Shown here: positions 14,195 to 36,696 of the stretch, in pieces
Numbering within the stretch: position 1 is the stretch's first letter
Layout: each line of letters opens with the position of its first letter
DNA from: Marsupella aquatica
Lineage: Eukaryota > Plantae > Marchantiophyta
DNA: 64,000 nucleotides
Assembly (NCBI GenBank): GCA_973895155.1
Contig: OZ316894.1
Coordinates: 7,898,234 to 7,962,233 of the forward strand
Reading direction: 5' to 3'
The notes under the pieces: generated by a model
What the model was told of the DNA's origin: nothing
Database searches by the model: none
What the model saw: only the letters and a program-made list of their open reading frames with translations
Translations under genes and position numbers: made by a program

Positions 14195-14740
14195 TCAGTC
14201 TTGTCCATAGCCTTCCTTTAACCATACTTCATGACCAGCACCTACGTCTACTCTTACCCGTTCTACACCGGCATCCTGAAAGCCAACTTTTAGACGGCTG
14301 TGCATTTCTGGGCATTGCCTGATCTTCTCCAAATCATTTATCGGGAGATATGCTGCTTGTCCTTCTTGCATGCTGGTGACGTAGCTCAAGATACCCTCAA
14401 GAATTTCAGAGGTACTGTTGATTAGAGCAACAGGACAACTTTCTGCCAAAAGTTCTTGACGAAGAAATTCAACAAGCTTCAGGAAGCGTCCGTCAGATTG
14501 ACTATTAGGCCTACACACGTCAAAATGGTTACATTGAACGCTATAGAACTCATCAATATCATAACGTCCTGATCCTTCTGTTACTACGTGAGAAGGACGC
14601 TTCCGATCCTGCATATGAAATTGCAAAGGAAATCCTGTCAGAATAGAAAAATAGACCCAAGTCAATTGCCTACGTATGGACTGCATAACTTACGCAGATC
14701 TCAAGATTTTAGACATGGTGAAGTATTTTATACGCACCAC
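14195..14740 (-). pseudogene. 3' part (intron plus last exon 14608-14195) of the alpha/beta-hydrolase gene split by the 14.9-kb transposon
   Basis: Donor GTGCGT at 14737, acceptor ATGCAG|14608. The exon DRKRPSHVVTEGSGRYDIDEFYSVQCNHFDVCRP aligns with the paralog exon at 51338 (GFNEIVVQEASARHDVLEFYTFQTANHFTVCKA). Confidence 0.85.
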
Positions 14741-14762
14741 ATCACTATATTCATTAAAACTG
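14741..14762 (+). repeat. Left terminal inverted repeat of the giant transposon
   Basis: ATCACTATATTCATTAAAACTG; the match continues imperfectly for about 12 more bp. Confidence 0.92.
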
Positions 14763-15192
14763 TACTTTTAAAAGTCCATAAGATGAACCCTAAAGTTATT
14801 TTTTTTCAGGCCAAATTTCTATTAAAGCATTCCCAAAAGCTAATTTTTTCAGCCCAAATATACACTTTTGAACTCCCAAAATTTTGTTTTTTTTCACCCA
14901 AATATTTAATAATAACTTAAATCATATATTCTAATTAATTTAAGAGTAAATTTAATTTAGTCCAAAAATCAGAGGCCAATATCACTAAGACCATCTATAA
15001 ATTAAAAAATATAGATGGTCATAAATCAAGGGTCAAAATGAGATTGACCCACTATATAATTATTAAATTGTCCAGTCCAGTGAGAGAGCCTCACACTAAG
15101 CATATCCTAATTATTTACTTTATCCTACATGTTCAAAACATATCCTTTGACATAATATGAATGTACAATTCAGGGTAGGCACTAGAGCAACC

Positions 15193-16245
15193 CTATCTCC
15201 TAATGATCAAGACAAAACTCATTTGAACAATAAAGTCTGCTTCCTGATTTATCATAGCGGATGTCACGCAAATATCTCTCGCATGGTGGTTCTTAAACTT
15301 ATTGGTGAGATCCCTAGTTCTGAGAACTTTCCAAATAAAATGCCTTCTATTTTGTGTATGAGGACCAGAATAGTTGTCTCCAAGTATTACGTTTGTAGTT
15401 TCTTCGATCTCATCCGTGGTCCACGTCTCCAGTGGTGGGTAATGCTGCACCTCGTTCTTTCCGTCCCAAGGAATCTCTTCAGGAGTCACATCCAAGATGG
15501 TTCCAAACTCCTTATGGATACAACGACAATCTCCCAACTTCTGTTCCAAAAGAGCATAGATGGCAACATGATCCTCCTTGCTTGTTAATAAATTGAAAAC
15601 ATACCACTTTGGATTGTTGACAGTGATATAATGTTGAACGCAGTAAGCCTTTCTCAATTTGCAAAGATACGGCCATAATATCTCGGGCAAAAAAGTGTCA
15701 TTTGAAGCTGTGTGAGTAAATGGATTTGGAAACAATCCATTCACGTCATAATTCAAAAATGCCTTCAATGGAGAATCATCAATAAGAACTGTATTAGAAG
15801 CATCATATTTTTCTGGAAAACGGTCCCAAATGGTTTGCAAATTCTTCAGAAGTAAATTGGCCTTCCCATCTGTTATATCTGGCCTTTGGATGCAACTATC
15901 AAAGGTATCTTTTTGAGTAAAGACAAACTTGAACTTCTGTCGCTCCTCCTCAGTGAAAATCAACTCCATTAAGTCCATTGTTTTTGGCCTCCTTGCACAG
16001 GTCCAAATTGCGACGTCAAAAACCATGAAAGCTGCATATAGAAATTCGTGGAGGTATGGGCGGTCCACATACATGAAATTAAACCCTCCACGTCTCCCCC
16101 AGTGCACACCACGTAAACTTGTCTGATTTCGCCATGGTCCTGAGCTTCTGGTCTTAATGCAATCCCAACAAATCTTGTTAAGGTCAAGAACCAAGAGCTT
16201 TCGCCGGATCGGAGAGTGTAGTATTGGAGTGAATTCTGGAAACAT
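15193..16245 (-). CDS. FCP1/SCP (NIF, HAD-superfamily) phosphatase-like domain carried by the transposon; probably the terminal exon of the ParB-MTase cargo gene
   Basis: KLLVLDLN (DxDxT position, DLN variant), RPYLHEFL, FDVAIWT, LLKNLQTIWD, NTVLIDDSPLKA. A splice acceptor GACTAA...TTTCCAG|16235 sits in phase 1 with the ORF. Confidence 0.8.
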   Translation of the reverse strand: MFPEFTPILHSPIRRKLLVLDLNKICWDCIKTRSSGPWRNQTSLRGVHWGRRGGFNFMYVDRPYLHEFLYAAFMVFDVAIWTCARRPKTMDLMELIFTEEERQKFKFVFTQKDTFDSCIQRPDITDGKANLLLKNLQTIWDRFPEKYDASNTVLIDDSPLKAFLNYDVNGLFPNPFTHTASNDTFLPEILWPYLCKLRKAYCVQHYITVNNPKWYVFNLLTSKEDHVAIYALLEQKLGDCRCIHKEFGTILDVTPEEIPWDGKNEVQHYPPLETWTTDEIEETTNVILGDNYSGPHTQNRRHFIWKVLRTRDLTNKFKNHHARDICVTSAMINQEADFIVQMSFVLIIRR

Positions 16246-18958
16246 TAAAATAAGCCCTTAGTCAATGCGACTCAAAGTTTAAACAATTACTACGGAGGAA
16301 AACTCTCAAAATTTGAAATCAAACAAACTTTGTTATAGCATTTGAAGTAGAGAGGAACGACCCTGGGGCGACCCTCCTAGAAAAACATTAATTACATTCA
16401 CTTGCCATTTTTTAGATCCAAAGTATACCTGGGTCAAACCCTTCCTCCACAGCAACGCTTTCCGAGGGAATGCCAACAAAATCCTTTGAGGAAGGAGATT
16501 CTACGATGGAACTTTGGTCTGTAAAAAAGTATATTATTACAAAGATAAAGCTTAGATTGTCATTAAAATACCAAGAACCAAAGAAAGGGCTAATAATTTC
16601 CAATGCTAAAATGCCCCAATTCATCTATTGTTTGATCACCTAGAACACTCTGTATCTCGGAATTGATACCACTGGGAAGTTGCTCTTCAAAGGATGGGGG
16701 TGCAAAAACTGGGCTCAGTCTCAAGTTCAGTTTTTTGTAATCTAATTTTGCCATTATCTTTGGAGCATCGTCTAGTGATTCTATCATTCCAACCTTTGGT
16801 CCATTTCTCCATATAAAATGAGTTGCAGGACGGACTGTTTTCATATATCCAGTCCTGCCGATCTCGGATCCAGAATTTTGTGAAAATGATAATACTACGG
16901 GGCTTCCTGTAGAAGTACTTGTAAAAACCAATTTAGTCTCTGATGAGCAATATAGAGGAGACAAGGGAGGATTTGAAGCACCTGCCTTCTCTTCTTCATT
17001 TGCAGCGGTCTCAGGTACTTGACGATCATCCTCCTTTGCAAGCGCAATGTCTGACATTTCTCCCAATTCTACTGCGTCAATATTGCCTAGACCATCTGCG
17101 GTTGCCTTCCAATGTGCGTCCGATGTGGACGATGTAAGATCTGGGTCCGATTGGTGCATCCAATTCTCTACACCGGCAAAGGGATTTCTTGGTGGGTCGC
17201 CCTCAGGTCGACCCACAACATCGGCCAACCCCACACCAAAGTAGGGAATACCTACCACTTGTGTTCCACGTTCATCCAAATTTCGGGTGACCTTGTCGTC
17301 TGTGTCGTGACCCAATTCTCCTTCCTCAATATCATCTTCGCCCTGGTCTACGCCTTCTTTGGCACCAACATGCTCGGAAACCCCATCGCGGGCTCTATCA
17401 AATTTGGAACCGCCCATCCGGTCACTCATTATGGAAGGAACTTTCTCGCAGAGAACCCTTCCATATGCCTGAGTGAAATCATATTCATCCTCAGTGTCTG
17501 GATACGCAAAGCATTCTCTGAAACACAACAATGACACCTTCATAACCTGTCCTCCCGAGAAAAAGTCAAGTATAGTCTCCCCTTTAGCCGAAAAAAATTC
17601 AATAATACTCTGCAGCATACATTTTGGCTTTAAATCGTGAATATTCACAAAGCCACCTCTACTTCCCACCATCTCAAACATGGGAGCCTTTCGTAAGAAA
17701 TCTCCAATGTGAAATGCCGAAGTTGACTCAGTCTCTGTCTCCTTACTTGTCTTACTCTTATTCTTATCTCGCTTCTCCGTCTTGTCTTCCACTTGGAAAT
17801 CAGGGTCGATCATTGAATTGTAAGAGAATTGGCAATTAAATCCAGGCCTGAACACTTGCTTCCAATCAAATTTCTCCTCAGTGGTGATTCCTGCAAAGAT
17901 TATCTCCTCCATACCACAACTGAAAAGTAAGCCCTCTAGAACTGGTGTATCACTCCGTCGATAGCTCCCGTAGTCAACGTGGATGTCCATTCCCTTTTCA
18001 TGTTGCAATTTCCTAAGGGCACTCAAAATGTTTGCAGCAAGTGGCCCCGGATGCACAGTCATGACAACAACAATTGTTGGATTTCTTGGAAGATCCACAA
18101 TGTATTGCAGTAATGCAATAATTTCAGCATCGGTCCAAACATGTTGTCGGAGCCTACTGAAGTCAACAATGGCAAGAGGACACAAAGGCGAAGGCTCTTG
18201 TAGCATTTCCGGCACGGTCGTCTTCATCAAATTATCACTAAAAAATGTCAAGAAAGGCTCCGTGCAAGAACGACCAATCCCACCAAATTCTTTACAATAC
18301 AACCCATCTAGTCTGACCATCAGACTTTGTGGGAAACTCTCATTGACCACATTCTTCTTCAATGAATTGTTGAGGTAAACCTCACCCGCTGCTCTCCTCA
18401 ATTTTGTCATCTCAAGCTCAGATTTCAAGGAAGGCAACAATATCACCAGAGACTCCCAAGATGTGCCAACAGGAAACTTCTCACGATACTTTTCCACGAA
18501 ATAGCCAATAATGACAATTCTCAATTTGGACATTATCTTGATTGTAAGGGCCAAGTCTCCCATTGCAACAAGCTCTGATTTGTTGGTGATATCCTTCTTC
18601 AGCAAGACACGCTCCTCTTCAACGTCCTTCAAGATCTCAATTATCTGTTTGCTACTAATCTCTCCTTCAAAGCATCGAAAGGTACCGGGAGTGATCAATT
18701 TTGGGGGTCTTGGCCCTCCATACCCACCACCCCCGTCTTGGAGCTTCCCACTCAACCATTTTGCACACACGTTCTGCCATAATTCAAAGAGCTCATCTTC
18801 GGAAAAAAGTAACCAATAAATGCTCTTTAGGCTTGACTTCCCCATTGTAACCTTTGCCAGGGCAAACCAATCTTGCACATCCAATGGACTTGACATTAGT
18901 TTCAGGGTACAATGCATATGTTAGAAAATTTATACCTATGTTTGAAATAGGCTAAGCC

Positions 18959-19138
18959 GCCTCGCCCCAAGGGCGTGGCGAACCTCTACATCTAACCGCA
19001 ATTGACTGAAACGGAACTAGGGAATTATTCTTAGAGAGACTAGTCTAGGTTGCCTCGCCTTGAGGGCGAGGCAAACATTTGCTTTAATCTTCTAACCAAG
19101 GAAAACAAGAAAAGGCAGCCTCGCCCTTGGGGCGAGGC
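18959..19138. repeat. Three copies of the 21-bp palindrome GCCTCGCCC-N3-GGGCGAGGC inside the cargo-gene intron
   Basis: Copies at 18959, 19052 and 19118, with 0-1 mismatches. Confidence 0.85.
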
Positions 19139-19834
19139 AAACCTCTACCATTGACAATCTTTAAACAAAGCGGATCAAGAATAGTTTGCGTTGATCCAAC
19201 ATGTACCTGATAGTTTTTCCTGTCTGTATTTTGATTGGTCCCAATCCCTGGACGCGGCGGTTTCCCGCACTCCTCAAACTGCCTTCGTGCATGAACAATA
19301 GTCTCTAAAAAACAAGACTTAAATTGCATAGTATCATTGACAACATTCGATAAACTTGAATGCTCAACCAAAATTGTCTTCGAAGTGAGGTCAGATAGGA
19401 TCCTTGCTTTCCTATACTTTAGTTTGTTGGCAAGATCTGTCAGCTTGGCGTCAGTCTCGGCCCACCCTTGGATCCATTGGGCAGCTCTTGCAGAATGCTG
19501 GCCACTGATGGCAAGGAATTGGATCTCATGCTTCTTCACACCAATCAAAAACTCTTTCCTATCCTGAGGTGTGTTGTCATAATGAAGCAACTGTTTAGTG
19601 TTCTCGCGATACGGAATCAAATCAGCAACTTGTGGTTCCTGTCCAGGGTTTTTCATCATAGACTTTGATATCTCCATTGCATGCGAAAGATTGAACATTC
19701 GATATACAAAAACGGCCGATGGCGGATTAATATTTTTTACAGGAATATCAAAAACTTTGCGGATGCCAAAAGTATAATACTGCTCAATATTACGCAAAAC
19801 CTCTTGGCCTTTGAGCACATCATCTTCTTTGGGT

Positions 19835-21090
19835 CCCTGGGCCCTCACTCTTACTATATTAAGTGAACCCCCCTGAGAACAGACACCCCCCGTGTACCCC
19901 TTCTTAATATTTTTGTTCACAAAAAAAAATCCCTTGTTAATGTAAAAACATTATTTGTTCCTATAAAAATTTATCCTTTTGTAAATTATAACAGAGTTTT
20001 TCAAGGAATTAAAAAACCCTTGAATTTTTAAAAATTGTAAATATCATACTGAAACATAAAAGATTCTATTTTGCATAGGGGAATATTATGTTACGCTGAT
20101 GTTCACGGTACATATTTTATATAGATCATAACAAAATTAGTACTAAAGATTAGTTCTTCCTAGAGTATATGACTATAACTTAGGCAACTTGTAGACCTCA
20201 TAGAAATAAACTGAACTAGTACAAAGGCATTATTATGCTATGCATATATCCTTGGAGGAATAATTGCATATATACTACTTATGTAAACTCCAATTGCTAA
20301 ATTATTCTATCTTGACTAAGAATGGTATGACATCAACCATTAACACCAAATGATAAGTAGAGTTTTTGGCAACTTCTTTCATGCAACCTGATACATCAAA
20401 CCACACATTAATCATATATATTCTAGACACAAAGTACTAATATCATCAAATCTCCTTTGGCTGAAATTGTTACTTAGACATGGTGGGTAATTTTCCTGCC
20501 ATCTCTGCAATCAAACAACTGTGAGCACCGGGTACCCCCCCTAACCCAATGATCAAGGAGTACACCACCCCACACACAAACACACCTGGCCTCATACCTG
20601 GCCATTTCATTTGATTTGAGGGAATTTAAAAGTAATCTTGTTTGTCTATGTGGGATTGATTCATGGGTCCCCATCAATCCCAGAACCCCAAACGAGTTGG
20701 GCCCCCAAAATCCTGGCCCAACATTTACTTAACTCCCAACTTAACACATGCGGGTAAACAAGTCTACCATGCAAGCCCATGAAACCAAACTTGCCTTAAG
20801 AGGATAAATAATTAAATGTCTGATTTACTATATGGACATGTGTGCCAATGAAGTGATGACATGTGTGCCAACCATATAGTGACACATGTCCTTGGCATTT
20901 TAGGTACCCTTGCCTAAGATTAATGTGACATGTATTTGATAATAGCCTTATTACTAATATTGTGATGAATGTATATACATGGATGTTGCCTACTTTAAAA
21001 AATATTATAAAAATTAGTTTGCATTACATTAAAAATACCCTTGCGTTGTTCGCACGTCCTCCCTGCATTAGTAACGCTGAGGGCCCAGGG
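19835..21090. mobile_element. Nested non-autonomous TIR element (1,256 bp) with 8-bp TSD, inserted in the cargo ORF
   Basis: TIR CCCTGGGCCCTCA...TGAGGGCCCAGGG (extends imperfectly through TTACTA). TSD CTTTGGGT at 19827-19834 and 21091-21098. The interior is AT-rich and non-coding. Excision restores the host reading frame. Confidence 0.9.
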
Positions 21091-22072
21091 CTTTGGGTCC
21101 TTCTGTCGGACACATATCATCCTCTGGATGCAAGACAAAGTTTGAAGTCGACCCTGACATTGGTTTTGATTTTGCAACCTTTGCCTTCTTTGTTTGCTTT
21201 TTTTGGGGGCCCTCATCATCTTCATTTTTTTTAGCCATCTTCTTACGGCGTGAACTCCCAAATTGTTTCTCTTGTTGAACAACCGGCTCTTGAAGCTTTC
21301 GTTTCTTCTCTGTCTTTGATTGCGCACTTCTTTCCACTGTCTTCTTTCTCTCCTTTGCCTTATGCTTTGCTTCTTTTTTCTTCATCTCTGAAATCCACGT
21401 CCGGCACGCGGCCTCTTGAAACTCTGGACAAAAAATGAAACTCTTGTCGATTGCTTGCTCGTATGAAAAATGTGCCTTCTCAATCATCCTTTGAACTATC
21501 CAAGTAGACGGAGGGTCCACATTGTCCGCATTGTCATGCATGTGCTTCTTTACATAGAAAAATCCAAACACTAGGTCAACTCCACTTATTTGAGAACGCG
21601 TCTTCTCAAACATCTGATCAATTGTTACTCCATCTGGGAAGAATCCCATATTAGCTACGCTTATCTCCAATCAAGCCATCCACTCAACATTCAGTAAAGT
21701 CGAGTAGAGTTTTATTGGCACCAGAAGTCTCATCCACTGAGATTTCTCATTGGACTCAACAATAATCGTTGCATTGCGGTTGTTGTCCGTGTTCACAAGG
21801 ACGACTGGACCTAGAGTAACAATTGTCTTGCGGTCATTCAATTGACTCGTGAGGCCCTTGAAACAAATCAAGAGACTGCCTTCCGCCGACACCCCAACTT
21901 CTAGTGCCCATCTAAATCCTGGAGTATCTTGGTCAGGGAAAACAAAGTCCTTGATATCCTCATCCATAATATTTAACTCCGGCTTCTCAAGATTTTTTCC
22001 TGGTAAGAAACATTGAAAACAAAATGGTCAGCATCATATTTTTAACATTGACATGTGGAAAACTTTCAAGGT

Positions 22073-23050
22073 GCCTCGCCCTTGGGGCGAGGCGACAAAT
22101 AGAAGATTGCAAAATCTTCTTTGCTCCTAGTGCAATTAGCCCTGCCACCTCATCCAAGCAATCAAACATTATTTAGGAATGCAGACGACATCGCCTCGCC
22201 CCAAGGGCGAGGCAACTTCTGGGAAAGCAAACAACATTTAGGAATGCAGAGGACATCGCCTCGCCCCAAGGGCAAGGCAGCTTCTGGGAAAGCAGACAAC
22301 ATTTAGGAATGTAGAGGACATCGCCTCGCCCCAAGGGCGAGGCAACTTCTGGGAATGCAGACAACATTTAGGAATGCAGATAACATCGCCTCGCCCCAAG
22401 GGCGAGGCAACTTCTGGGAATGCAGACGACATCGCCTCGCCCCAAGAGCGAGGCAAAAAATAGAATATAGCTAAAGATCCTTTATTAATGTAAGATACAA
22501 GGTCCAATACGCCTTTGGAGCAACAAGAAATCTAGAATGAAGTAGACATTGCCTCGACCTTGGGGCGAGGCGACTGCAAAGGAATATAGAAATTTTCCTA
22601 ATAAGATGTTTGAAATCCAAATTAAAGTAAAGTTGCCTCGCCCTTAGGGTGAGGCAAGAAGTTGAAGCAGGTGGTGCCTTACGTGGAAAAGTTAACTGGG
22701 CTTTCTCTGACGCCTCCAACGCATTGTTAACCAATTTTTGGACATCCGGGTCTTCAAGGTAATATTCATACAGAGAGTTATAATTGAAGTTCAATGACTC
22801 TTGAGAACTGGCGGAGGTGGTGGAAGCTTCAAAACTGGAGGAAGTAGACATTGTAAGGGGCGAGTGAGATTTAAGATGACACATGGCAGCAATGGAGAAT
22901 GCCATAGGCTGCAAGAGGGCACTAACAGGCAAACAATGATTGAGGGAGCGACCCAAAAGGGAAGGGAGCAAGGCGGAAATAAAAGCCTTAGAGCGAGGCG
23001 GAAAAAAAATCCCAAGAGCGAGGCAAAAACAAAAGCCCTAGAGCGAGGCA
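22073..23050. repeat. Array of the GCCTCGCCC-N3-GGGCGAGGC palindrome, including a 65-bp tandem repeat (22171-~22455), upstream of the cargo gene
   Basis: ATTTAGGAAT recurs at 22171, 22236, 22301, 22366. Palindrome copies at ~22073, 22193, 22258, 22323, 22388, 22434, 22551, 22635; half-sites at ~22985-23050. Confidence 0.88.
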
Positions 23051-24152
23051 AGAGGGAGGCAAGGAGTGAGGAGACAAGAGAGGAGGCAAGAGGGAGGCAA
23101 GGAAATGAGGCCTCAAGCGCAAGGCTTGCCTTCCTATACCCCCTGCGAGCGAGGAGTCCGAGGAGGCAAGGATCCGAGAGGGTACGGAGGCATCAATGCG
23201 CGCCAATGATGGAGACCCTCCTCGCTGCATGTGATCGTGAGTCACCGATGGTGTGACCACTCATGACCACTCACGACTCACCTACCGATTTTAAACTTCC
23301 GAGCTGTCAGCGGTGTGTGCTTGCAACTCACCTATCACTCGTGAGTGATTGGCTGACACCCTATCCGATGTCTACTTGTGTGCTGGGTGCGTGCCTCATC
23401 CACCCGTGCCCGATCTGTTGGTGTCCACTCGTGTGCTGGGTAATGTGTGGGCTTTTTGCCTCGGGGGGTCACTATATGAAGGGTCATACATCACGTGCGA
23501 CGGTTTGGGTCATTTATGATCCCCCTAAGTCACTTTCTAGAAAGTTATATGGCACCAATCATGTGATGACACGTATGCATTTTGCAATTAAACAACCCTA
23601 TATTTCCATAGAAGACTTAATAAGTCTTCCGCCAAAACCATTTAAATGGCCCTATACTTCGTCGCACATGATATGCCACTTCCATGGAAGTGACCCCCCC
23701 GAGTTTTTTGCCTCTCAAACTGAGTATAGACCTCCCACAATCCATTTTTTGGTTCATTGTCATTTAGACAGTGATTGGTACGATCACTGACTCTCCTCTG
23801 TCCGAGTGCCTTGTTTAGGTCCGCATGGTTGAATGCAAGGTTTAGTAAGGGCACTGGTGAGCACTGTGGTGCTAAGAGTTACAATGCTGGCATCCAAGGT
23901 ACCCATTTAGCTTGTACAAGGGTGGGCAGAGATATATTGCGGAGCAGGTTAGTGATTTTATTTATTTATCTTAGAAGTACTAGCTCAACTACATTTAATT
24001 CAATACCTTTAAGCCAAACCTAGATTAAGATTTACACATTAGGTTCTAGATCATATATTTTACTCATTTCTAGACCTTTATCCACAGTCTAGCATGTGTA
24101 GAACTTACTGTACCCCTTTATGTGATTACTAACATAGTTTCTAGAAGTGGGT

Positions 24153-25320
24153 CGGAATTATTTCATGCCGACCTGACTATGTCATCTTAACTAGCATTTT
24201 AAACTGGTATATAAAAGCATAAGCAAGATAGTTTCACAAATAGTTTTGACATAATTTCAACTTAATAGTTGGAGTAGGGTCTAAATAATTCCGACCCAAC
24301 TTGTCAATGTTTAGTCAATTAAATCATTTTAAGACATATTGTTGGAGGAGGGTCAAAATAATTCCGACCCGACTTGTAAATGTTTAGTCAATTCAATCAT
24401 TTTAAGACATATTGTTGGAGGAGGGTCGAAATAATTCCGACCCAACTTGTAAATGTTTAGTCAATTCATTTGAAGGCATATTGTTGGAGGAGGGTCAAAA
24501 TAATTCTGACCCGACTTGTAAATGTTTAGTCAATTCAATCATTTTTAGACATAATGTTGGAGGAGGGTCGAAATAATTCTGACCCGACTTGAATGTATTT
24601 AGGGTTTTGAGTGATTTTACAATATTTTTTGGAGGAGAGTCCAGATTTTGAAACATGATTGTAACATGGGGAACTTAACAATTTCTAACTTTATTTGAAT
24701 ACAAATAGTCCGCTATCATGATCAATTTTACACGAGCGGAATTATTTCATGCCGACCTGACTATGTCATCTTAACTAGCATTTTAAACTGGTATATAAAA
24801 GCATAAGCAAGATAGTTTCACAAATAGTTTTGACATAATTTCAACTTAATAGTTGGAGTAGGGTCTAAATAATTCCGACCCAACTTGTCAATGTTTAGTC
24901 AATTAAATCATTTTAAGACATATTGTTGGAGGAGGGTCAAAATAATTCCGACCCGACTTGTAAATGTTTAGTCAATTCAATCATTTTAAGACATATTGTT
25001 GGAGGAGGGTCGAAATAATTCCGACCCAACTTGTAAATGTTTAGTCAATTCATTTGAAGGCATATTGTTGGAGGAGGGTCAAAATAATTCTGACCCGACT
25101 TGTAAATGTTTAGTCAATTCAATCATTTTTAGACATAATGTTGGAGGAGGGTCGAAATAATTCTGACCCGACTTGAATGTATTTAGGGTTTTGAGTGATT
25201 TTACAATATTTTTTGGAGGAGAGTCCAGATTTTGAAACATGATTGTAACATGGGGAACTTAACAATTTCTAACTTTATTTGAATACAAATAGTCCGCTAT
25301 CATGATCAATTTTACACGAG
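24153..25320. repeat. Tandem 584-bp duplication (apparently identical copies), each containing ~5 units of a ~73-bp repeat with the palindrome GGGTCGAAATAATTCCGACCC
   Basis: 24153-24736 matches 24737-25320, both ending ATGATCAATTTTACACGAG (the transposase start). GTTGGAG recurs at 24268, 24341, 24414. Confidence 0.9.
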
Positions 25321-28300
25321 GGGATGAAGTGTCATTGGTGATCGATGGATTTGAAACGGCAATTGGGATAGTTCAAAAGGTTGACCCCCAGGATACTATA
25401 CAAAACATTTGTCTAGGGGATAATCGAATTGGGGTATTGATCGAAAAGTGTTTTGATGGATCGCGTCAACTTCCATTTCCTTCGCCCAAATTTTCTACAT
25501 TGGCTGAGGCAATTGACTCCTGCGTGATTTGGGATTGTGCATTGGCATACTTGAGGTCATCAACTCAGCGTCGAAGAATCAATGTCGATGATTTCTCTTT
25601 GGCTGGAGATGCTGGAAATGATAAATCCAAAATTGATGCAAGGGTTGAAGAGGACGTGTTCAAGGAAGGAGATGAAGTTCAGATGTTCATTTTTGATCAG
25701 TTGGTTGCAAATGGAGTCGTTTTCAAGACAAATCTGATGGATATTTGTCATACTGAAACACTCGGGGTTGGTCGCATCAGTATAAGAATATCTGATATTG
25801 TTAAGGGAAATCAAAAATTGCCATACTCGCACCCTAGAGCTGATACAATAGAAGAGGCCTTGCATACCTGGGTTATCTGGGATGTTGCACATGTTTCTAG
25901 AAAGGGCACTCTACGAGATTTTGGCGTGTTTGGTAGTTCAAATATTTTCAATGATCTTCCATTAAAAGATTTTACACTACGTTCCAACTGGATGGCGGAG
26001 GAGGTTGATTTGTATGACGCTTCTCGTTGTCGGAAGGTTGCAACAGGTGTTATCACGGTCCCATTTGAAACAGGTGCCATTGACGATGAACTTCTTGGTG
26101 CAGATCATGTTGGTGTTGCTGTTGTGAATATCAATGAACCCGAATTATTTCCAAATATCCGTGTTGGTACCCTGACTTGGTGAGGTGGGAAATCAAATCC
26201 CTTCTATTGATTTCGTCTCAAAGGTTTCTTGGGGATATCCTTGAGGAAGTTTCAGAGAAGTGGATGGAGTCGGGTCGAACTAAGGGCGATCCGGATTTGG
26301 ATGGTGATGGTAAACCTACAAAAAGACCATACAATTTCATTAGGAGGACAAAAATTGATCTTGAGGAGAAGAAGAAAAGGCATTTGGAGTCGAGGGCACT
26401 TTTGAAAATTAACGAGGAGTCCATTGATTCCATCCAAAGAGAAGGTTGTTGCAAGCTAAAGTGTTGCTTGAACATGCCCAGGGAGGACTTAGAGGCAATG
26501 AGGAGGGAATACCATGGAATGTCAAGTGACAACAAAACAAGTCACATCTTTAGTCTCTTTGGGTGTAGAGAGGAGCAAGTCAAGAGAAAGGGATTTTTTG
26601 TTCTAAAGGGACGTGTGGTTTGTAAAGATGCATTTATTAAAATGCATGGGTTCAGTACAACAAAGTACTATGACTACAAAAATAAATACGAAGCTGGTTG
26701 CACAATTGGTTTCCATGGAAATCAGGGACTCACAACGGAAGACACGATCAAGCACTTTGCACGCTCGCGCCTTGTTGGAGTCCATTTTAATCCAAAATGG
26801 GGAACCAATGCCACATCTTCCCTATGGTGGGTCCAACGGCACTGACACTATTGAATATCGGCTCCCATCTTGTTTTACTAAGAAGGAGATTTTCCAAGTG
26901 GTGTTTACCAAGATGGAATTAGATGGGTTTGCTAAGGTTACTGAAGTTACTATGTACAACATCTGGAAAAACTCATTTGATAATTTTGACTTTCACAAGG
27001 GAAGTGCATTTGCCAAGTGCACATTTTGCACTAAGTTCAAAGATCAATTGATGCGGGAGAAGAGAAAAAAAGAGCGTGCAGAGATTGAAGAGAAAAGAGT
27101 GCGACATCTTTGTGAACAAATGTCAAGAAGATATGTTTACTATGCTCATAGGGTTCTTGCAAAGAAGGATCCTCAAAACTATCTTTGCATTATTCACGAT
27201 AAGATGGATCAAGCCAAGATTGGATCCCCAGGTTGGTCCCCACTCCAAAATCCCTCTCTGGTAGTGGTCAGCCTTTGCCTATTGCTCTTACTGGGATGTT
27301 AACCCATGGAAGAGATCCTGGAGTGTATGCACATTCCAGTTTCACTGGACTTTGGCCTGGAGATGCAGACTTTACCGTGACATCTTTGGCCAAATGCCTC
27401 TGAGATTTGGAAGATTACACAGGAGACAAAACTGGAGACCTTCTTGAGGGATTGAATTGGAATGCAACTAGGCCAATATTTCAGTCCCTTCTAGACTTTG
27501 AAGCATTTCTGGCCGGTTACTTGGAACCCAAAAATGTTTCAATTGTTCGATTTCAAGGCATTGAAGATGGTGAGGAGACTAAAAAGTCAAGTACAGTGGA
27601 TGTTGGTTCTAAGGATGATCCTGAGACTACTAGGGGCTCTTTCAAGCCCTTACCAAGGCACCTAACGTTGCAGATGGACAAATTCAGGGAAAGATAACAA
27701 AAATCAATATGTGATGGCATTTTGCACTGAGCTTGTTAGCAGGGGGGTGTTTGAAACTGTGCAAATGTCATTCCTCATGGTTGGCCACACCCATGAAGAC
27801 GTGGATGCATTATTTTCTCAAGTATCCAAACAGGTCAGATACAAAGAGGTTGCTACCCTCTTGGGGTTGATGGCTGAGGTTTGGGAGTGTGAAAGCATTC
27901 ATCCTGTACCACGATTGATTCAAGAGGTTGCATCTTACAAGGAGTATTTGAAAACTTTCCAGGTGAAAGAGATAGAAGGTCACTCAAAACCAGTGGCATT
28001 TCTTTTCTCCACGAGGGATAATGTGCCAGTGTATCAATATAAAGCACATGTCAAGCAACCTTGGCTTCCGGCAATGGGGAGGTCCATTTGGAGAACTGAT
28101 CCCATCACAAATGCGCTCATTTTACCGGAAGGCCAACCATTTGCAAAACCTATATCATTGAACTGGGGATGTACAAAAGAAGGCTGGCCCGAAGGCTGGA
28201 GAAATCATCCCATTCCTTAATCGCTATATTGATTTCTTGAAGAAAAGTTGTAAGGATGAGACCTCTGCAGCATATAAAGAGAGATTTCCTCTGGTCAAAT

Positions 28301-29021
28301 ATTGGGAGAATCTTGTGCAAGCACTGTCCGAGGAACTTACAATAGAAGGGGAGGGGGAAAGACATTTGCCATTGACAACTGATTTTTGGCCAAAGATTAA
28401 CCATGGCACAAGTTACAAGATGATTTTGGGGACATCTCAGCCGTCAAGTGAACCTTCTCAAAATCCAGAGATGATGGACCTTCAAAATGAGTACATGGAA
28501 GAGATGGAAGATCAAGCTGCACCCTTTGTTGGTGCACGACAAGAACGAGAACCTACACGTTGGATTCCTCTACAAGATATTCAAGAAGGTCACTTTGTAT
28601 TTTTACGTCCAGAGGATGAATGGGAACAAGGAAATGGCAAAGGGCATTTCTGGTTGGTTCGAGCTTTGGGTGGTGTGGATCCAAACCATGAGGTTCCCTC
28701 AACAGATTTGCAACATATTGAAGGGTCTTCTTCAACGTCTGTTGAGAGCATTCCTAAGTTCCTATGTTCCAAGTACAATGGTGGAGGCCTAAACATGGTA
28801 AGCATGATGCAAAGGATGATGTTCGATATGAACGTTGCTTTCAAACCACTAAGACTTGGGAGCTGGATCCTGGGTTTGACAATGTTACTCAAAGTTGGCA
28901 GTTTGCAAATTCTGCAATGTATGGGTTTAAGTCAGGTGCTAAAGAACAAAATATTATGGATAGAGGTTTGACAATTCCTAAGAATGTTTTGAAAACTCTC
29001 AAATTTACATGGAAGGTATAA
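25302..29021 (+). pseudogene. Sola-like DDD transposase (DUF7869-type core) with three N-terminal Tnp1/DUF8039-like repeats; multiple frameshifts
   Basis: Consecutive ORFs 25302-26183, 26177-26845, 26613-27302, 27407-27697, 27711-28220, 28237-28971, 28764-29021. Motifs GCCKLKCC, VCKDAF, FAKCTFC, IIHDKMDQ, GMLTHG, LTLQMD/DNKNQYV, VGHTHEDVD. In-frame TGA at 27401. Confidence 0.82.
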
Positions 29022-29602
29022 TTGATGAGTAGATTGATAGAACTCGTAGGTTACAAGTCTCCACTCAAATGACTTGTGATTAAGAGGGTCGAGTTGATTT
29101 CCATGCGTTTGTCTAAAGTGAGAGAACAAGACAATCAAATTAATACTCTATGATCTCTCAAAGTTATTGAATGGACTTTCTTATAATTATTATTTTATTT
29201 GTCTTAGTATATTTTAATTCTAGAAAATGATGCCATTTCATTCCTTCTAGTAGGTTGGATATCATCCTAGTTAACTTTGTCTAGACAGTATAGTCATTCC
29301 ATTGTATTGGTGCTTAGTTAGATATCTTACTCAAGCTAAATGTTTTGAATATAGATGCTATCCAAGCTTATATGTTATTACTAGATTCTATCTATTTTCC
29401 AACCAAATGAATACTTTTATCACCCAAATGTTTTTTAATATCATCCAATTTAACATTTTACTTTCCCAAAATTTCATTTTTTTGTCCCCAAATTTACATT
29501 TAATGATGCTTGAATTTTCATTTTTCATCTTCCAAATTTACAATTTTCATGCCTAAAACTATGTTTTTAAATCGCCAAATTTCCCTATATCCTTTATAAT
29601 TT

Positions 29603-29624
29603 CAGTTTTAATGAATATAGTGAT
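29603..29624 (-). repeat. Right terminal inverted repeat of the giant transposon
   Basis: CAGTTTTAATGAATATAGTGAT, followed by TSD CCAC. Confidence 0.92.
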
Positions 29625-30362
29625 CCACTTCTATTGAGAGTGTCGCAAAAATTGCCATTGTTTTGCAATGACTAGATTTCTGCCATTTTACAAAGTCAAC
29701 TATCATTCGGCATGTCTCTGTACTGAACACTTCTAGGGGACTCAACAAGGAACCCTTACTCGGATGGTTTTTTGTCGATTCTGCTAGTTCAGAGCCTTGA
29801 AAGGGTGTAGCATAGTAAAAAACTCCTCTTATGCTCTTCAGGAAGGAATTCAATTGTTGCAAAACAACAGAGCTGGTTGACAGCTTTAAAAATTCCTCAG
29901 TTTAGTTAACATGTCCCGCTTATCCTGCATTGCTTTTACTAGGCTCATGATAATAAGCCCACCAACACCATGTCCAACCAAAAAGATCGGGCTACTTGTT
30001 TCATAAGGAGGTTTCTTATAAATTGCAAGAATGTCTTGCCTCAAATTCTCTCCGAGTAAATGCAAGTCCATGTGGCCGCCACACGGGGTCTTCCATCTGC
30101 TAGCATCATAACGAGCAGACAAAATTCTGGACTCCGGATACTTTGACTTAAGCCAATCTCGTGGCCAACATTCAAGAGGAACAGTTGTTGACATCCATGA
30201 TTGCACATGTGGGTTGTCAAGCTGTTTCCAAAGAATGTCATGGAAAAAAATAATTTCTGCCTTTGGATCTTTCGGATCAGTGAGCGGGGTGTGAAACGCA
30301 TATATTGAATCATTGTACTGCACACGAGGAATAATATCTGAGCAACAATCAATAAGATGCAA
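29625..30362 (-). pseudogene. 5' part of a SERAC1-like alpha/beta-hydrolase gene (bryophyte hydrolase-NLR-type N-terminal domain), frameshifted and interrupted by the transposon
   Basis: AEIIFFHD, CWPRDWL, SRILSARYDAS, LLGENL, IFLVGHGVGG (nucleophile Ser replaced by Gly), GVFYYATPFQGS. Frameshift near 29900. Homologous to 50488-51141. Confidence 0.85.
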
Positions 30363-31104
30363 TACAAGGAAAAACTCAACAGACTGATGTGCCAGAAATC
30401 TTGAATCTGGACAAAGACATCAAGTATGCGAAAAAGAGACTCCTCATCATGACTAAAGAGAAAAGCTATTCCCTAACGTATTCCTGTATTGCTAAGGCAT
30501 TGATAAAGCTTGTGAGCATAACACAAGCTCTTAGAAAGGCTTTTATGAGATACCTTAAGCAGATCCGGGGTAAAACTTCCGGTAGTGGATGCAGATGCCA
30601 TCGGCACAAGAAGGAACGGGGAAGAAGACAATTATAGTCTCTTGCCTGGAAGAACGGCAATTGACCGACCTACAAAAATAATTCCAATCTTCGAAGACTT
30701 GTCAGTAATTGGCATTATGATAATTAATCTAAACAAGGTGGCAACTCTAGATATTTGAAGAAAAGCAACCCTTCAATAAACACCCAGACAACCATACCGC
30801 AGCGTCAACGGCCGTCGCCACCATTACCGTCGAAATCGATCACCTGCCCCCGCTGCTAGTTTTCCAAAACAAGCGCAGCCTGAACGGCCGTCGCCTGAAC
30901 GGCCGTCCCGCTACTCTTTCCTCCTTTCGCAATTTGCGACCGTGATTTTTCGTCCCTTCATTATTTCAATCATCGGAATGAAACGAGACTTCTCTTTCTA
31001 AAGGCAGAGCGGAAAAAACAACAACGAGATCACCGTGTTTGATCGGCACACAATTGCGTCGACCAATTTTGTTTCTGATTCGAGCGATGTATGGCATATG
31101 TTGC

Positions 31105-34100
31105 TGTTGGAAACTACGATCTTCAGTACCTTGTTTTCCCCTTCCGTATACGGGCCCACTTTCTATTCATTGTCGTCTTCTGTCCCTTGCTGCTTACCTT
31201 TAGATCTAGGTTGCATCCATCTGATGCTTTCGCCCCTTCTCTTGGGCTCTTCTACTATGCGGCGCCTCTTTGTCGCCCCCTGCACTCCTTGCCCTTTCCC
31301 CGAGTACTTATGTGCTTCCCGTTGGCTGTTCCGGTATCTTAGTCATGCTAGATAGTTTTATCAACATGGTATCAGAGCAAGGTTAGCTCTCCCGTGACTA
31401 AGATCCAACGCTAGACTTAGATGAGAGTTCTCTGAGTTTGAGCGACCTGTCCCTCCGTCTATTTCAGTTGGTGAGAGTTCCCAACGTGATCTAGCCATGG
31501 ACCTAGCTAGAATATTCAGTGAAGCTGACAAGCTAGATGGAGAAAGCAACCACATCACGTGGAGCTTACAAGTCCAGACCCTGCTCGAGCGAGACGAGGT
31601 ATGGGATGAACTGAAGTTCGCTGACGAAGACAGCGACAACACTGACACAACCAACGTTGCTACAGTAGAGGATGAGATTGTCCTCACTCCCAAGGAACGC
31701 AAGAAGAAGATCATCAAGGCCAAGTCCATTCTGATGGCCACCGTCAAGACCAAGTTCCTCCATGTCGTTGCTTCATATGGCAACGATCCTGTTGCCTGCT
31801 GGCAGCACTTCAAGCAGCGCTTTCGAGGTGACCTTCTCCAACGCAGACTTCTCCTCGAACAGAAGCTGCATAAAGTCAAGATGACTGAAGGCAGTAACAT
31901 CGAAGACTACCTCAGGGAAGTAGAAAGCATCACTTCCCAACTCTCCATGATTAATGCCACTGTTGACAACTCCCGTCTCATTCACATTGTTCTAGGCGGG
32001 TTACCCCATAGCTGGGGTCCCTTTGTATCCAGCTTTGGCGCTGATTTATCTAGAACCCATACACCCAAGTTCTCCTCCCTTGTGGAACGTATGCAGGCTG
32101 AGGCTTTCTGGAGGAAAGGGAAACGAGAGGAAGTTGCTGAAGAAGCCCTTCTCGCTCGCTTTTCTCGACCTGCTGTCAGAGGCCGTGTCTCTCACCGACC
32201 CTCTCGCCCAGGGGACTACCGTGGATCCATTGCTGACAACCGCAGTCACCCGCCTGCTCCTGTTCCACGTCGCACGACTGGCTCGTGCAACTATTGCAGC
32301 AAATCTGGCCATTGGGAAGTTGAGTGCGACCTGAAGAAGCTAGATGATCAAATCTCCCAGCTGATGATTCGTGCAGGGAACCTTCGTCGAATCAAACCCC
32401 AGGCACACCTCACGGAGTTCACTCCAGACCCTGAGGATTTTGATCCATTTCCAGAGATGCACGAGGAAGAGATTGCTGCCAACCTTACCGAATTCAGAAA
32501 CACCTCTCAAGATTGGTACATGGACTCCGGTGCTAGCAATCACATCACTGGACATCGCTCAGCATTAGAGACTTTCCAGCAGGCTGGCCCTTCTGGTCCT
32601 GGTGTAACCACTGCTAGCAGTAACACTTTGCCCATTGCTGGCAATGGCACTGCTCATGTTGACAATAAAGCTATCAACAATGTTCTTTACGTGCCTGGTG
32701 TTCACAAAAATCTTATGTCTGTGGGCAAACTTGCCGATGCTGGTCATCTTATTTTGTTTGACTCTAAGTCTTGCTTAGTGTTTGACAAAGACAACCCATC
32801 ATCCGTCTTTCTCCAGGCATCTCGATCACCGCGGAACAGTTTGTATCAACTGTCGTCCTCCGGCTCTTATCCTCCGCCTTGTTTGACACATGAAGCGAAT
32901 ACCATCACCAATGTGGAGACTGACATTGTCGACTTATGGCACCGGCGTCTGGCTCATCTCAACTTTCAACTGCACATCACATGACTGCCCAACACCTCGT
33001 TACTGGTGTTCCCTTGCTCTCCTTTCAGAAAAAGCAATGTACGTCATGTATCCTCGGCAAAACTCATCGTGACAATGTCCCCAAGCACTCCATTCGACGC
33101 ACATCACGTGTTTTGGATCTGGTGCATTCTGATCTTTGCGGACCCATCCACTCCAGCTCCCCCGTCAAGTACATCTTGACCTTCATCGACGATTTTACCC
33201 GTTTTACGTGGGTCTATTATCTCTCTCACAAACATGAGACTTTCCGCTGCTTCAAGACGTTCAAAACTGCTGCCGAAAATCAATTTGGCACCAAGCTCTC
33301 CTGTTTACGCTCTGATCGAGGTGGCGAATACTTGTCCCAAGAATTTATTGAGTTCTGTAGCCACCACGGGATTCGCCGTCAACTGACTGCCCCTAGTACC
33401 CCCCACCAAAATGGGGTAGCTGAACGCAAAAATCGCACTTTACTTGAGGCCGCCAGGAGTATATATGTTGAGGGTAAATATCCTCGCTTCCTCTGGCCTG
33501 AGGCAGTCAAAGCTGCCACCTATGTTCTCAATCGATGTTCCACTCGGGCCCTTCATCTCTCGACGCCCTTTGAGGCTCTCTATGGTATGAAGCCTGATCT
33601 CTCTCACCTCCGTGTCCTTGGCTGCTCAGCTTTTGTTTGCCTCCCTACTAAGTCCGATGGGAAATTTGGCTCGCGAGCTATCCCTTCTGTCTTCATTGGT
33701 TATGACCTCAACACCAAAGGCTACCGCTGTTTTGACCCCCTCTCTCGTCGGATCCTTATCTCCTCCAATGTCACCTTTATTGAAGACTCCCCTGGAGATT
33801 TTTGTGCTCCTCCTGCCCAGTCAGACATTTTTCTTGACCTTCTCCCGGCAACTGAGGCTCCTTCTGAGCCAGAAGGGGACGAACATCATGTTCTTGACCA
33901 TGCTGCTCACGATGCCCCTAGCAATCTTGATGGGACCCAGCTCCCCAATGACAACACCATCAAGGACGTTGCTGACCTTGGCAATCACGGTGGGACTCAT
34001 GTCCACAATGTCGACCCCACCATCGACGAGGCTCCTCCTCTGCCCTGTAACTCCACCCTTGCTCCAAATGTTCAGATTAATCCGCTACCAAAACGCCGCG

Positions 34101-36548
34101 GGTCAAGGGCCAGGCAGCTTCCAGCCTGGGCTCGTAGTGGGGACTATGAAATGCATATCCCGGAGGATGTAGACTTATGCATTATCGAAACCGCTAACCC
34201 TGTTAGTGACACTATTGCCTTCCGTGATGCTATACAAGACCCTGGCTGGTGCAGTGCTATGCAGGAAGAATATGACAGCTTGATTAAAAATGAGACATGG
34301 GACCTTGTGGAGTTACCCCCGGGGAGATGTGCAATTTCATCAAAATGGCTGTACAAATCTAAACCTATCCATGACGCCGATAATCCAACGCGCGCACGTC
34401 TTAAAGCTCGTCTTGTTGCTAGGGGTCTTGAACAGCAACCTGGCATAGATTATAATGACACTTTTGCACCCGTCGTTCGCTGGTCAACTCTTCGTGCTGT
34501 TATCGCTCTTGCTGTTGCATCTGGTTGGCCTATCAGTCATATGGACGTTGTTACTGCATTCCTTAACGGGACTCTTAAAGAGCTCCTTTTCATGCAACAA
34601 CCGCCTGGCTTTGCTCGTAAAGGATTGGAGCACCTTGTTTGCCGGCTCAACAAATCCATCTATGGACTGAAGCAATCCCCCCGTGAATGGTATCAAGAGA
34701 TTGATAAGTACCTTCACGAACAAGGTTGGACCCGGAGCGATGCTGACCCCAACCTATATTACTTATTTCAGGGGTCCTCTATTGTACTCTTACTCCTTTA
34801 CGTGGACGACCTTCTTATTACCGGCAATGATTTGGCACTCATCGACACTATCAAGCTCAATCTTCAGAATCGGTATGAAATGAAGGATCTTGGTGAAATC
34901 CGCAAATATCTCGGTGTGGAGTTCACCAAGACTGCAAACGGTATGCTTCTTCACCAGCACACCTATGCCGAACAGATTCTTCGTGATTACAATATGACTG
35001 AATGCAGGCCTGCCCACACGCCTCTACCAGAAGGATTCGCCACTCAATCTAACTCTAACACGGCTCCCGTTGACCGCTCAGAGTATTGCACCCTTGTGGG
35101 TAAACTACTCTTCCTTACGACCACTCGACCGGATCTATCCTACTCAGTTGGTATGGTGGCTCGTTTTATGTCTCAACCTCACTTGCAGCACTTGGAAGCT
35201 GCCAAGCACATCCTTCGGTACGTTAAGAAGACACTCGATTATGGGATCCACTACAAACGCTCCTCTCAGCTTCTTCTCACAGGATATACTGATGCGGACT
35301 ACCTTGGATGCCTCGATACTCGGCGCTCTACTGCTGGCTATGTCTTCACCCTGGCTTCTGGGCCTATCTCCTGGGCTAGCAAACGACAACCCACAATTTC
35401 GGACAGCACCACCGAAGCTGAGTACAAGGCCCTCTCTGAGGCTACTAAGGAAGCTGTGTACCTACGTCGATTACTTCGCGAGCTCCAACATACCTCCAAC
35501 GTCACCGTTCCTGTTCAATGCGACAATGCCACCATCCACAAGGACCTACACGAAGCTGCAATCCCTACTTCTCACGATCTACACTTACACTGCGATAACC
35601 AAGGATCTATTCGACTTGCTCTGAATCCGATCTTCCATGCTCGCACCAAACACATTGAGGCCAAACACCACTTTGTACGTGAAAGGATTCTTGAAGGCGA
35701 AGTCTCTTTACAATACATCAACACCGATGACCAACATGCTGACATTTTCACCAAACAAGTCTGTTGGCAAATTTTTGAAAAGCATCGAGATTTCCTTGGC
35801 ATTCGGTCTAGGTCCTCTCTTCTCATCTAGGTTCATCATATGTGTACACTGCACTCCCGCACTATACCTATAGTGGTACTCTCGCTGACCTGCATCATCT
35901 CTCTCTCTCCCATTTGTTTTCTGCGACTTCAGATCGAGAGGGGGTGTTGGAAACTACGATCTTCAGTACCTTGTTTTCCCCTTCCGTATACGGGCCCACT
36001 TTCTGTTCATTGTCGTCTTCTATCCCTTGCTGCTTACCTTTAGATCTAGGTTGCATCCATCTGATGCTTTCGCCCCTTCTCTTGGGCTCTTCTACTATGC
36101 GGCGCCTCTTTGTCGCCCCCTGCACTCCTTGCCCTTTCCCCGAGTACTTATGTGCTTCCCGTTGGCTGTTCCGGTATCTTAGTCATGCTAGATAGTTCCC
36201 CGAGTACTTATGTGCTTCCCATTGGCTGTTCCGGTATCTTAGTCATGCTAGATAAAACTATCTAGCATGACTAAGATACCGGAACAGCCAACGGGTTTTA
36301 TCTAGCATGACTAAGATACCGGAACAGCCAACGGGAAGCACATAAGTACTTGGGGAAAGGGCAAGGAGTGCAGGGGGCGACAAAGAGGCGCCGCATAGTA
36401 GAAGAGCCCAAGAGAAGGGGCGAAAGCATCAGATGGATGCAACCTAGATCTAAAGGTAAGCAGCAAGGGACAGAAGACGACAACGAACAGAAAGTGGGCC
36501 CGTATACGGAAGGGGAAAACAAGGTACTGAAGATCGTAGTTTCCAACA
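31105..36548 (+). mobile_element. Young Ty1/Copia LTR retrotransposon with a rearranged 3' end
   Basis: 5' LTR 31105-31366 (TGTTGG...TCAACA). PBS TGGTATCAGAGC (tRNA-iMet) at 31367. PPT GAGAGGGGG before the 3' LTR at 35945-36197. Inverted LTR ~36296-36548. TSD GTTGC at 31100-31104 and 36549-36553. Confidence 0.95.
31497..35830 (+). CDS. Copia gag-pol polyprotein with one frameshift near 32965
   Basis: Zinc knuckle CNYCSKSGHWEVEC, protease WYMDSGASNH, LWHRRLAH, integrase HSDLCGP/LRSDRGGEY/QNGVAERKNR, RT LLLYVDDLLI, RNase H ADYLG/EAEY/HCDNQ/ADIF. Confidence 0.93.
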
Positions 36549-36696
36549 GTTGCTGCATTTGATTTTGATTTGTCACTCAAATTTTTTCATTGATACCTTC
36601 CGTTAGAGGCATGAGTTATTGCGTTCAATGTCGTTTTGTAATGTGCTCCGAATTTTAATGTCGACTGTTGTAATGAGCAGATATTCAGTTGCACTG

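Follow-up and report, generated by a model that had tools for sequence, protein, structure and literature searches.

The closest described counterpart of the system considered here is Sola1-1_Ec32 of the brown alga Ectocarpus, a 21.5-kb DNA transposon with a 4-bp target duplication and an opposite-strand gene for a protein of 1,104 amino acids (aa) that combines a ParB-like domain with an N4/N6 methyltransferase (MTase) domain (PMC12477816). Its transposase is closest by blastp to that of the moss element Sola1-1_PPa, and the same source cites similar proteins for green and red algal transposons. Sola elements are defined by a 4-bp target duplication, inverted repeats of 11–1124 bp with variable ends and a DDD transposase (PMC10741241); Sola1 is recorded in moss (PMC9033089, PMC10741241), and some Sola elements exceed 15 kb. 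In another plant system, the VANC proteins bind VANDAL elements at repeated motifs in introns (PMC5735166). Here, we describe a 64,000-nucleotide stretch of the genome of the liverwort Marsupella aquatica (GenBank assembly GCA_973895155.1, contig OZ316894.1, positions 7,898,234 to 7,962,233; hereafter the window), which contains a defective transposon copy. The family has been mobile recently and likely belongs to the Sola1 group, and its opposite-strand gene (hereafter the cargo) is predicted to join a ParB/Srx-fold domain to an MTase fold devoid of the usual catalytic motif.

The element is bounded by terminal inverted repeats of 32 nt (91% match, with the initial 22 nt perfect), which are the longest among 135 inverted pairs within 12–33 kb, and CCAC lies immediately outside both ends (Table 1). 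For comparison, we used six public runs (X1 to X6) from four studies, containing 20–59% of the sampled words of 14741–24100. A contig in X3 and X4 (organism code B) represents the empty allele: it fuses the left flank (14707–14736) to 29625 and carries one CCAC only, which establishes the 4-bp duplication. Both insertion junctions are present in X1, where a contig over 13689–14767 is identical to the window, and X2 features the left junction with zero differences from the window. Foreign flanks behind the right end in four of the runs represent further insertion sites. Thus, the element is a dispersed, polymorphic cut-and-paste transposon that duplicates 4 bp, and its family has been recently mobile, with the insertion present in one organism code and absent from another. 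These observations bear out an earlier interpretation made from the letters of the window alone (hereafter the sequence-only reading), which had delimited a 14.9-kb cut-and-paste element by its inverted repeats, target duplication and rejoinable host gene; the span was correct, but 2.1 kb of it is specific to this copy. A CACTA word 2 bp inside each end would also allow a duplication of only 2 bp, and the 2-bp and 4-bp readings alike restore the host gene in frame; however, the empty allele is compatible with the 4-bp model only, which excludes a CACTA/EnSpm element with a 2- or 3-bp duplication. Weak Transposase_23 matches were found at the transposase N-terminus only. The interrupted host gene codes for an α/β-hydrolase (DUF676, E = 2.3e-4; 32% identity to a paralog at 50425–51309), and the insertion point apparently coincides with an exon–intron border in it. 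Several of the foreign flanks at the right end (in X1, X3 and X4) begin with 3–4 bases equal to the target at 29625–29628 and are mutually alike across runs, hinting at either a target preference or shared older insertions.

In X1, the single-contig depth is 9.3 and 13.4 for the flanks, as against 421–515 for the cargo, 509 for the transposase and 525 for the right end. The resulting ratio of element to flanks, 37–46 on a measure that is no true copy number, is alike for the NIF, MTase, ParB and 5′ parts of the cargo, the transposase and the right end. Because the ratio is flat across these parts, the cargo belongs to the regular content of most copies, and the alternative that the sequence-only reading had itself raised, namely a one-off capture with the cargo lacking from other copies, is not borne out. 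The present copy is nevertheless dead, with both genes broken by frameshifts, stops and two nested inserts. The larger insert, with inverted ends of 13 bp, is flanked by a duplication of 8 bp (19827–19834/21091–21098); other copies skip 19827–21090 (1264 bp), with the joint 19826>21091 in 4/4 runs, and the homolog P0009 has an undivided counterpart of the split exon. The smaller insert is skipped in three of the four runs (X1, X2 and X5). An exact 584-bp duplication inside 24153–25320 is letter-perfect, and hence either very recent or an assembly artefact. Without the two inserts (1264 + 252 bp) and this duplication, the core amounts to 12,784 bp. Given the dozens of similar copies, intact versions of both genes should exist.

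The transposase displays N-terminal repeats (weakly Transposase_23-like), a Cys/His region and a DUF7869 DDD core, the pieces on the forward strand matching DUF7869 with E = 1.2e-33. The full-length homolog P0121 (1,250 aa) aligns across 25302–29015, and the present gene is broken by two stops (26843 and 27401) and by frameshifts near 26169, 26770, 27219, 27680, 27742, 28160 and 28700. Among the differences listed (40 out of 874 substitutions, 12 out of 69 indels), contigs of other copies depart from it at 26169, 27219, 27680, 27742, 26843 and 27401. We found 58 transposase homologs among 241 candidates, the named ones being from Calypogeia fissa (75% over the core) and Riccia sorocarpa. Their near-invariant Asp columns at positions 673/676 (19/19), 820 (50/51) and 862 (57/58) in P0121 numbering point to a core of the DDD type with a presumably catalytic role. 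A profile search of the PDB with the transposase recovered no convincing structural relative, and the ESM Atlas yielded DUF7869 clusters only. As the element duplicates 4 bp, has short inverted repeats (32 bp) and encodes a DDD-type core, it agrees with the definition of Sola (PMC10741241) and likely belongs to the Sola1 group. The sequence-only reading had also arrived at a Sola-like element, with a transposase on the forward strand and a cargo unit on the opposite one, and the gene pieces and domains agree with that layout. We rejected Sola2: in a by-eye comparison with the first of the two parts of the Sola2 alignment in PMC3627910, the motifs around all three acidic residues differ, and the AT-rich target of Sola2 is unmet by CCAC.

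The cargo is predicted to be a single spliced unit. Its exons 22851–22683, 21999–19207 (minus the insert) and 18872–16590 add up to 1,326 codons, interrupted once by a stop at codon 166; when the 90-nt linking exon and the NIF exon are included, the count rises to 1,687 codons and no further stop appears. In the present copy, a premature stop lies at 21671–21673 in the first part of exon 2, and the acceptor of exon 3 is AA. In the homologs P0032, P0104, P0108 and P0113, the ParB-like part and the region after it are found in one chain, and residues 1–340 of P0009 align to 21091–21999. The splice from exon 3 to the NIF exon is uncertain, since homologs conserve a C-terminal stretch that it would either bypass or come after. 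Our searches recovered 97 representatives of the cargo family at E ≤ 0.001, with identities of 22–62%; the named members are from Calypogeia fissa and Riccia sorocarpa, and several Riccia genes are among the distant ones. A metagenome scan returned one locus, whose 1.8 kb are too little to show its surroundings. Two further conserved domains have no Pfam match, namely the N-terminal one (21091–21999, reverse strand), which is common to P0009–P0016, and the small C-terminal one (16605–17033, reverse strand), which shows 41% to P0001.

The methyltransferase-like part is predicted to adopt the fold of the β-class amino-MTases. Its model (predicted local distance difference test score, pLDDT, of 83; 47 sequences) superposes over its full length on these enzymes, with CcrM as a match at Z 17.9 (root-mean-square deviation, rmsd, 3.2; 203 aligned) and rotifer N4CMT at Z 15.7, and it displays the permuted Rossmann fold with motif IV ahead of motif I. 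METTL14 chains are also among the fold matches, a profile search matched M.RsrI (E = 9e-8), and a phage protein annotated as ParB (BFVD A0A6J5MMM5) likewise matches this part. PF01555 scores are mostly below the curated cut-off, with coverage limited to the C-terminal half. While the profile and structure searches thus recover the β-class fold named in the sequence-only reading, the active writer of N6-methyladenine or N4-methylcytosine that it had envisaged is not supported by the active-site region. The first core strand ends in an Asp (model residue 34) at the place of the (D/N/S)PP(Y/F/W) motif. Among the 107 aligned rows, 35 (query included) reach this place; 33 of these have Asp and two Glu, and none has the two prolines or the closing aromatic, so that the catalytic motif is absent in 35/35. 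In 34 rows, the S-adenosylmethionine (SAM) loop region shows strong conservation of a variant form, which ends without the second Gly-Ser/Thr-Thr pattern usual for motif I. On the aligned rows, the loss of the catalytic motif is therefore a family trait and not decay of the present copy. In rotifer N4CMT, a change of SPPY to APPA abolishes activity (PMC8885841); inactive MTase domains are known from DIRS retrotransposons, and inactive MTase partners have also been described (PMC4738411). Since the motif is lost family-wide and the APPA change kills N4CMT, our default reading is that this part would be a pseudo-enzyme under selection. A tree of 17 of the 47 MTase-domain rows did not resolve the position of the window sequence.

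A second, broken and spliced β-class amino-MTase gene is found at 62080–63840 on the reverse strand, running past the window end (PF01555, E = 0.0022; phage MTase families, E = 1e-5 to 7e-5). It keeps the motif-IV Asp, one Pro and the Tyr, and has a fuller motif I than the cargo. The two are distantly related, with an hhalign probability of 65% (E = 6e-5) at the SAM end and 1.8% in the helical part. This gene possibly represents a second mobile family with an active-type enzyme.

For the ParB part, a ParB/Srx fold is predicted on modest, consistent scores from a model with pLDDT 81 based on 13 sequences. Foldseek placed Noc and ParB on top, and with VIA the top 8 of the 19 rows at Z ≥ 2 among 48,161 chains all have the ParB/Srx fold (Z 8.1 to 5.0), the best structures being PadC (rmsd 3.2, 99 aligned), KorB (Z 7.9) and SerK (Z 7.4). 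In addition, the homolog P0013 shows a weak DndB match (E = 0.052). A Pfam scan of the window cargo sequence left ParB undetected, with the fold search alone recovering it; the ParB domain that the sequence-only reading had proposed from a GQH motif is thus recovered as a fold. A dynein-tail label from the ESM Atlas (low recognition) was rejected, as the two fold searches contradict it.

The NIF/HAD-family domain (PF03031, E = 2.6e-16) is likely part of the cargo protein, judging from the frame that joins them. Its sole PDB relative is UBLCP1 (E = 6e-9), and among the NCBIfam models TIGR02245 (E = 7.9e-14), TIGR02251 (E = 6.5e-7) and TIGR02250 (E = 0.019) all fall below cut-off, HAD-IIID being the best and the FCP1 model standing at E = 0.019. 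In the present copy, the DxDx(T/V) motif keeps the first Asp, while the second Asp and the Thr/Val are absent. A phosphatase of the RNA polymerase II C-terminal domain, as suggested in the sequence-only reading, is therefore not supported, the NIF/HAD domain being closer to UBLCP1 and HAD-IIID than to FCP1. PF03031 was found in 0/45 and 0/20 of the other proteins scanned, and the end of the Riccia protein P0103 resembles the first NIF motif in a non-significant match (E = 1.0); the fusion is hence unconfirmed beyond the present liverwort family.

The non-coding parts of the element feature two palindromes. The first, of 21 bp (9-bp arms, a 3-bp spacer and mostly two CG dinucleotides), occurs in 11 copies, all in the two cargo introns and none elsewhere in the 64-kb window, as against 0–1 in five shuffles. 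The second, imperfect one occurs in 12 repeats, mostly in the 73-bp array upstream of the transposase, with one further word copy at 15030–15050. ParB dimers load on palindromes, and by analogy the first array is likely to be a binding site for the accessory protein encoded by the cargo.

We give about an even chance to the explanation that the present copy is a defective member of a recently mobile Sola1-like family whose accessory protein is a non-catalytic self-recognition factor, which binds the intronic palindromes of its own family and tunes that family in trans without methyl transfer. Intact copies would supply both proteins in trans, with the DDD transposase cutting at the inverted repeats and a dimer of the accessory protein binding the 21-bp sites, which have two-fold symmetry, in the way that ParB binds parS. 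Like that of METTL14, the MTase fold would be retained as a scaffold that grips DNA or binds SAM, and binding would keep the divergent promoter of the family open or tune its expression, as VANC does via the non-coding motifs of VANDAL (PMC5735166). Several points weigh against this explanation. The similarity to ParB is modest (Z 8.1 at best; E = 4e-4, to Noc), and no parS-reading helix-turn-helix was identified in the ParB part, where model residues past 165 are barely covered. Within the ParB motif Gln-His is invariant, and so is a Ser (13/13 rows) at a position where ParB and DndB normally carry Arg; because of this replacement, CTPase activity is not to be assumed. The assignment of motif IV is based on strand position and overall superposition, and catalysis of a non-standard kind would be compatible with the kept Asp and the conservation of the SAM loop. 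The palindromes are equally explicable as transposase sites or as by-products of tandem duplication. As for the unity of cargo and transposase, no single contig covers both in the other copies in the runs, and the named Calypogeia and Riccia genes for the two include no accession-number neighbors, the closest being 10 locus tags apart among the matches listed. Further, X1 is possibly the source sample, and its contig depth gives a rough copy estimate.

If the protein were instead an active, unusual amino-MTase or another SAM-dependent modifier marking its own DNA, with the ParB part providing the targeting, this would agree with the sequence-only reading and with the self-modification proposed for Sola1-1_Ec32 (PMC12477816). 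The complete β-class fold, the Asp on the catalytic strand in 33/35 rows, the tight conservation of the SAM loop in 34 rows and the span of that conservation over 22–62% identity all fit such an enzyme; yet the prolines or base-stacking aromatic occur in 0/35 rows, PF01555 is mostly under its cut-off and reaches the C-terminal half alone, and we consider this unlikely. The cargo might otherwise act as a structural helper of transposition in end pairing, target capture or timing, the palindromes being loading sites that compact the 13-kb element. Loading at palindromes and bridging of DNA are both known of ParB-fold proteins, the length of the element is unusual and most of its copies keep the cargo; however, the palindromes cluster in the cargo introns by the divergent promoter and not at the ends, and most Sola elements, of 2–9 kb, are mobile without such a gene (PMC10741241), which leaves this role distinctly improbable. 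A shade less probable again is an inactive half of a two-part MTase, comparable to METTL14 with METTL3, whose active relative would come from another mobile family. The relic at 62080–63840, with its Asp, Pro and Tyr and its likeness to the SAM end of the cargo, the METTL14 chains among the fold matches and the inactive partners described in PMC4738411 speak for it, but that gene lies 32 kb outside the element, is only distantly similar and shows no sign of joint travel. Least probable of all is a captured passenger without a role for the element: the cargo of this copy is indeed broken by the nested insert, the stop and the changed acceptor, but the same architecture recurs in divergent liverwort homologs and in the brown-algal Sola1 (PMC12477816), and the family retains long open frames, invariant motif columns and a depth equal to that of the ends. 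A bolder reading strikes us as doubtful. Here, a phage-derived ParB–MTase protein would act on the intronic palindromes of a land-plant Sola1 much as ParB acts on parS, its rebuilt active site would read or shield methylated CG within those palindromes or perform new chemistry, and the fused HAD domain would serve as a switch, allowing the family a sequence-specific escape from silencing.

Table 1. Features of the liverwort element and of the host gene that it interrupts (window coordinates; strand given as +, − or., exons of the cargo as predicted)
Feature	Position	Strand	Remarks
Whole transposon copy	14741..29624	.	14,884 bp; family core ~12.8 kb
Left copy (CCAC) of the 4-bp target duplication	14737..14740		
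Right copy of the 4-bp target duplication	29625..29628		
Left terminal inverted repeat	14741..14772	+	
Right terminal inverted repeat	29593..29624	−	other flanks follow in X1, X3, X4, X6
Host gene, upstream half (α/β-hydrolase, DUF676-like)	29608..30419	−	
Host gene, downstream half (intron, then coding sequence)	14195..14736	−	
Cargo exon 1 (predicted; ATG, GT donor, phase 1)	22683..22851	−	placed from splice borders
Cargo exon 2, first part: N-terminal domain (conserved, no assigned fold), Lys-rich linker	21091..21999	−	
Cargo exon 2, second part: ParB/Srx-fold domain	19207..19826	−	conserved motif 19492–19506
Cargo exon 3: helical region, MTase fold, acidic linker, small conserved C-terminal domain	16590..18872	−	
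MTase fold (predicted)	17451..18263	−	motif-IV position 18153–18164; SAM-loop position 17550–17570
Linking exon, 90 nt (predicted; AG/GT borders)	16429..16518	−	joins exon 3 to the NIF exon in frame
NIF/HAD-family domain exon	15193..16235	−	first Asp 16183–16185
Nested non-coding insert, 1,256 bp	19835..21090	.	splits cargo exon 2
Second nested insert, 252 bp, short inverted ends	23453..23704	.	between cargo and transposase genes
21-bp palindrome, 3 copies	18959..19138		cargo intron 2
21-bp palindrome, 8 copies	22073..22655		cargo intron 1; four within a 65-bp tandem array
73-bp tandem array with imperfect palindrome	24153..25320		upstream of transposase; doubled by the exact 584-bp duplication
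Transposase gene	25302..29021	+	~1,250 aa in intact homologs

The remainder of the window features further mobile elements and host genes. A Copia-type retrotransposon with long terminal repeats (LTRs) that are 99% identical lies upstream in the interrupted host locus (31105–36549), with an inverted extra LTR copy at 36299–36549. A second Copia-type element (55519–60805; LTRs 96–99% identical, stops in pol) contains a 38-bp perfect inverted repeat at 59084–59179. Duplicated Kelch-repeat F-box-like genes, 83–92% identical, are found at 36600–38800 and 46750–48700. Fragments of open reading frames (ORFs) at 40469–42025 on the forward strand have no Pfam match, and by eye we take them to resemble a tyrosine recombinase remnant; near these are a 57-bp inverted repeat (39979–40095) and an array of 70–80-bp repeats (44586–45070). 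The paralog of the interrupted host gene (50425–53704, forward strand) consists of an α/β-hydrolase ORF followed by a leucine-rich repeat ORF, an arrangement that presumably resembles a hydrolase–leucine-rich repeat immune receptor. An intact SKIP/SNW splicing-factor gene is located at 6129–8036 on the forward strand (E = 1.5e-74).

Compared with described enzymes, the MTase part has the same fold and motif order as CcrM, M.RsrI, M.MboIIA, M.PvuII and rotifer N4CMT (Z 15–18). However, its identity to the β-class enzymes is just 7–18%, and the cargo differs from them in having no catalytic motif, in being a spliced eukaryotic gene and in its extra domains. The liverwort Marchantia has DN4MT1 with the same β-class amino-MTase fold (bioRxiv 10.1101/2021.02.12.428880); unlike the cargo, it keeps TSPPY and is described as having no extra N- or C-terminal domains (PMC8885841). 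The pairing of ParB with an MTase is itself known from phage ParB–terminase loci (PMC4738411), and the present family shows that bacterial or phage-type ParB–MTase genes circulate on liverwort transposons.

As for the element as a whole, the opposite-strand ParB-like and N4/N6 MTase gene of Sola1-1_Ec32 (PMC12477816) overturns the supposition of the sequence-only reading that the combination is undescribed. The two elements share giant size, the 4-bp duplication, this opposite-strand gene and nested insertions. In contrast, the Ectocarpus element has 21.5 kb, 282-bp imperfect repeats and other termini, as against ~12.8 kb and 32-bp repeats in the liverwort, and its protein has 1,104 aa, while the length predicted for the liverwort protein is 1,326 aa without and 1,687 aa with the NIF domain. 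The passages on Sola1-1_Ec32 covered here make no mention of catalytic-motif loss, a palindrome array or a phosphatase domain. Sola1-1_PPa of Physcomitrium patens, a Repbase name listed in the Ectocarpus supplement, is likewise a bryophyte Sola1; it may already contain the cargo, which would lower the novelty of the present case. In the literature within reach, which left out subscription journals, Repbase Reports and bioRxiv supplements, we found no land-plant case, motif loss or palindrome array described, and no paper containing the term DUF7869. A Sola1 with a ParB–MTase is in itself a published design (PMC12477816), whereas its occurrence in a land plant, the rebuilt active site, the array of palindromes, the fused HAD domain and the polymorphic insertion are new here.

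The Ectocarpus study of 2025 proposes that ParB–MTase accessory proteins modify the DNA of their own transposon (PMC12477816). The liverwort family makes the idea testable through its recent mobility, its dozens of similar copies and a candidate site present 11 times in its own introns, and challenges the simplest form of the idea, as all homologs examined have lost the motif. VANC and the VANDAL elements (MuDR) share with it an element-encoded second protein and repeated motifs in introns or non-coding parts (PMC5735166); they belong to a different transposon superfamily and have short non-palindromic motifs, and with no sequence or fold link to the cargo shown they serve as a functional model only. 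Either a conserved pseudo-MTase would act as a transposon self-recognition factor, so that plants would have another solution in addition to VANC, or new chemistry would take place in an unusual active site.

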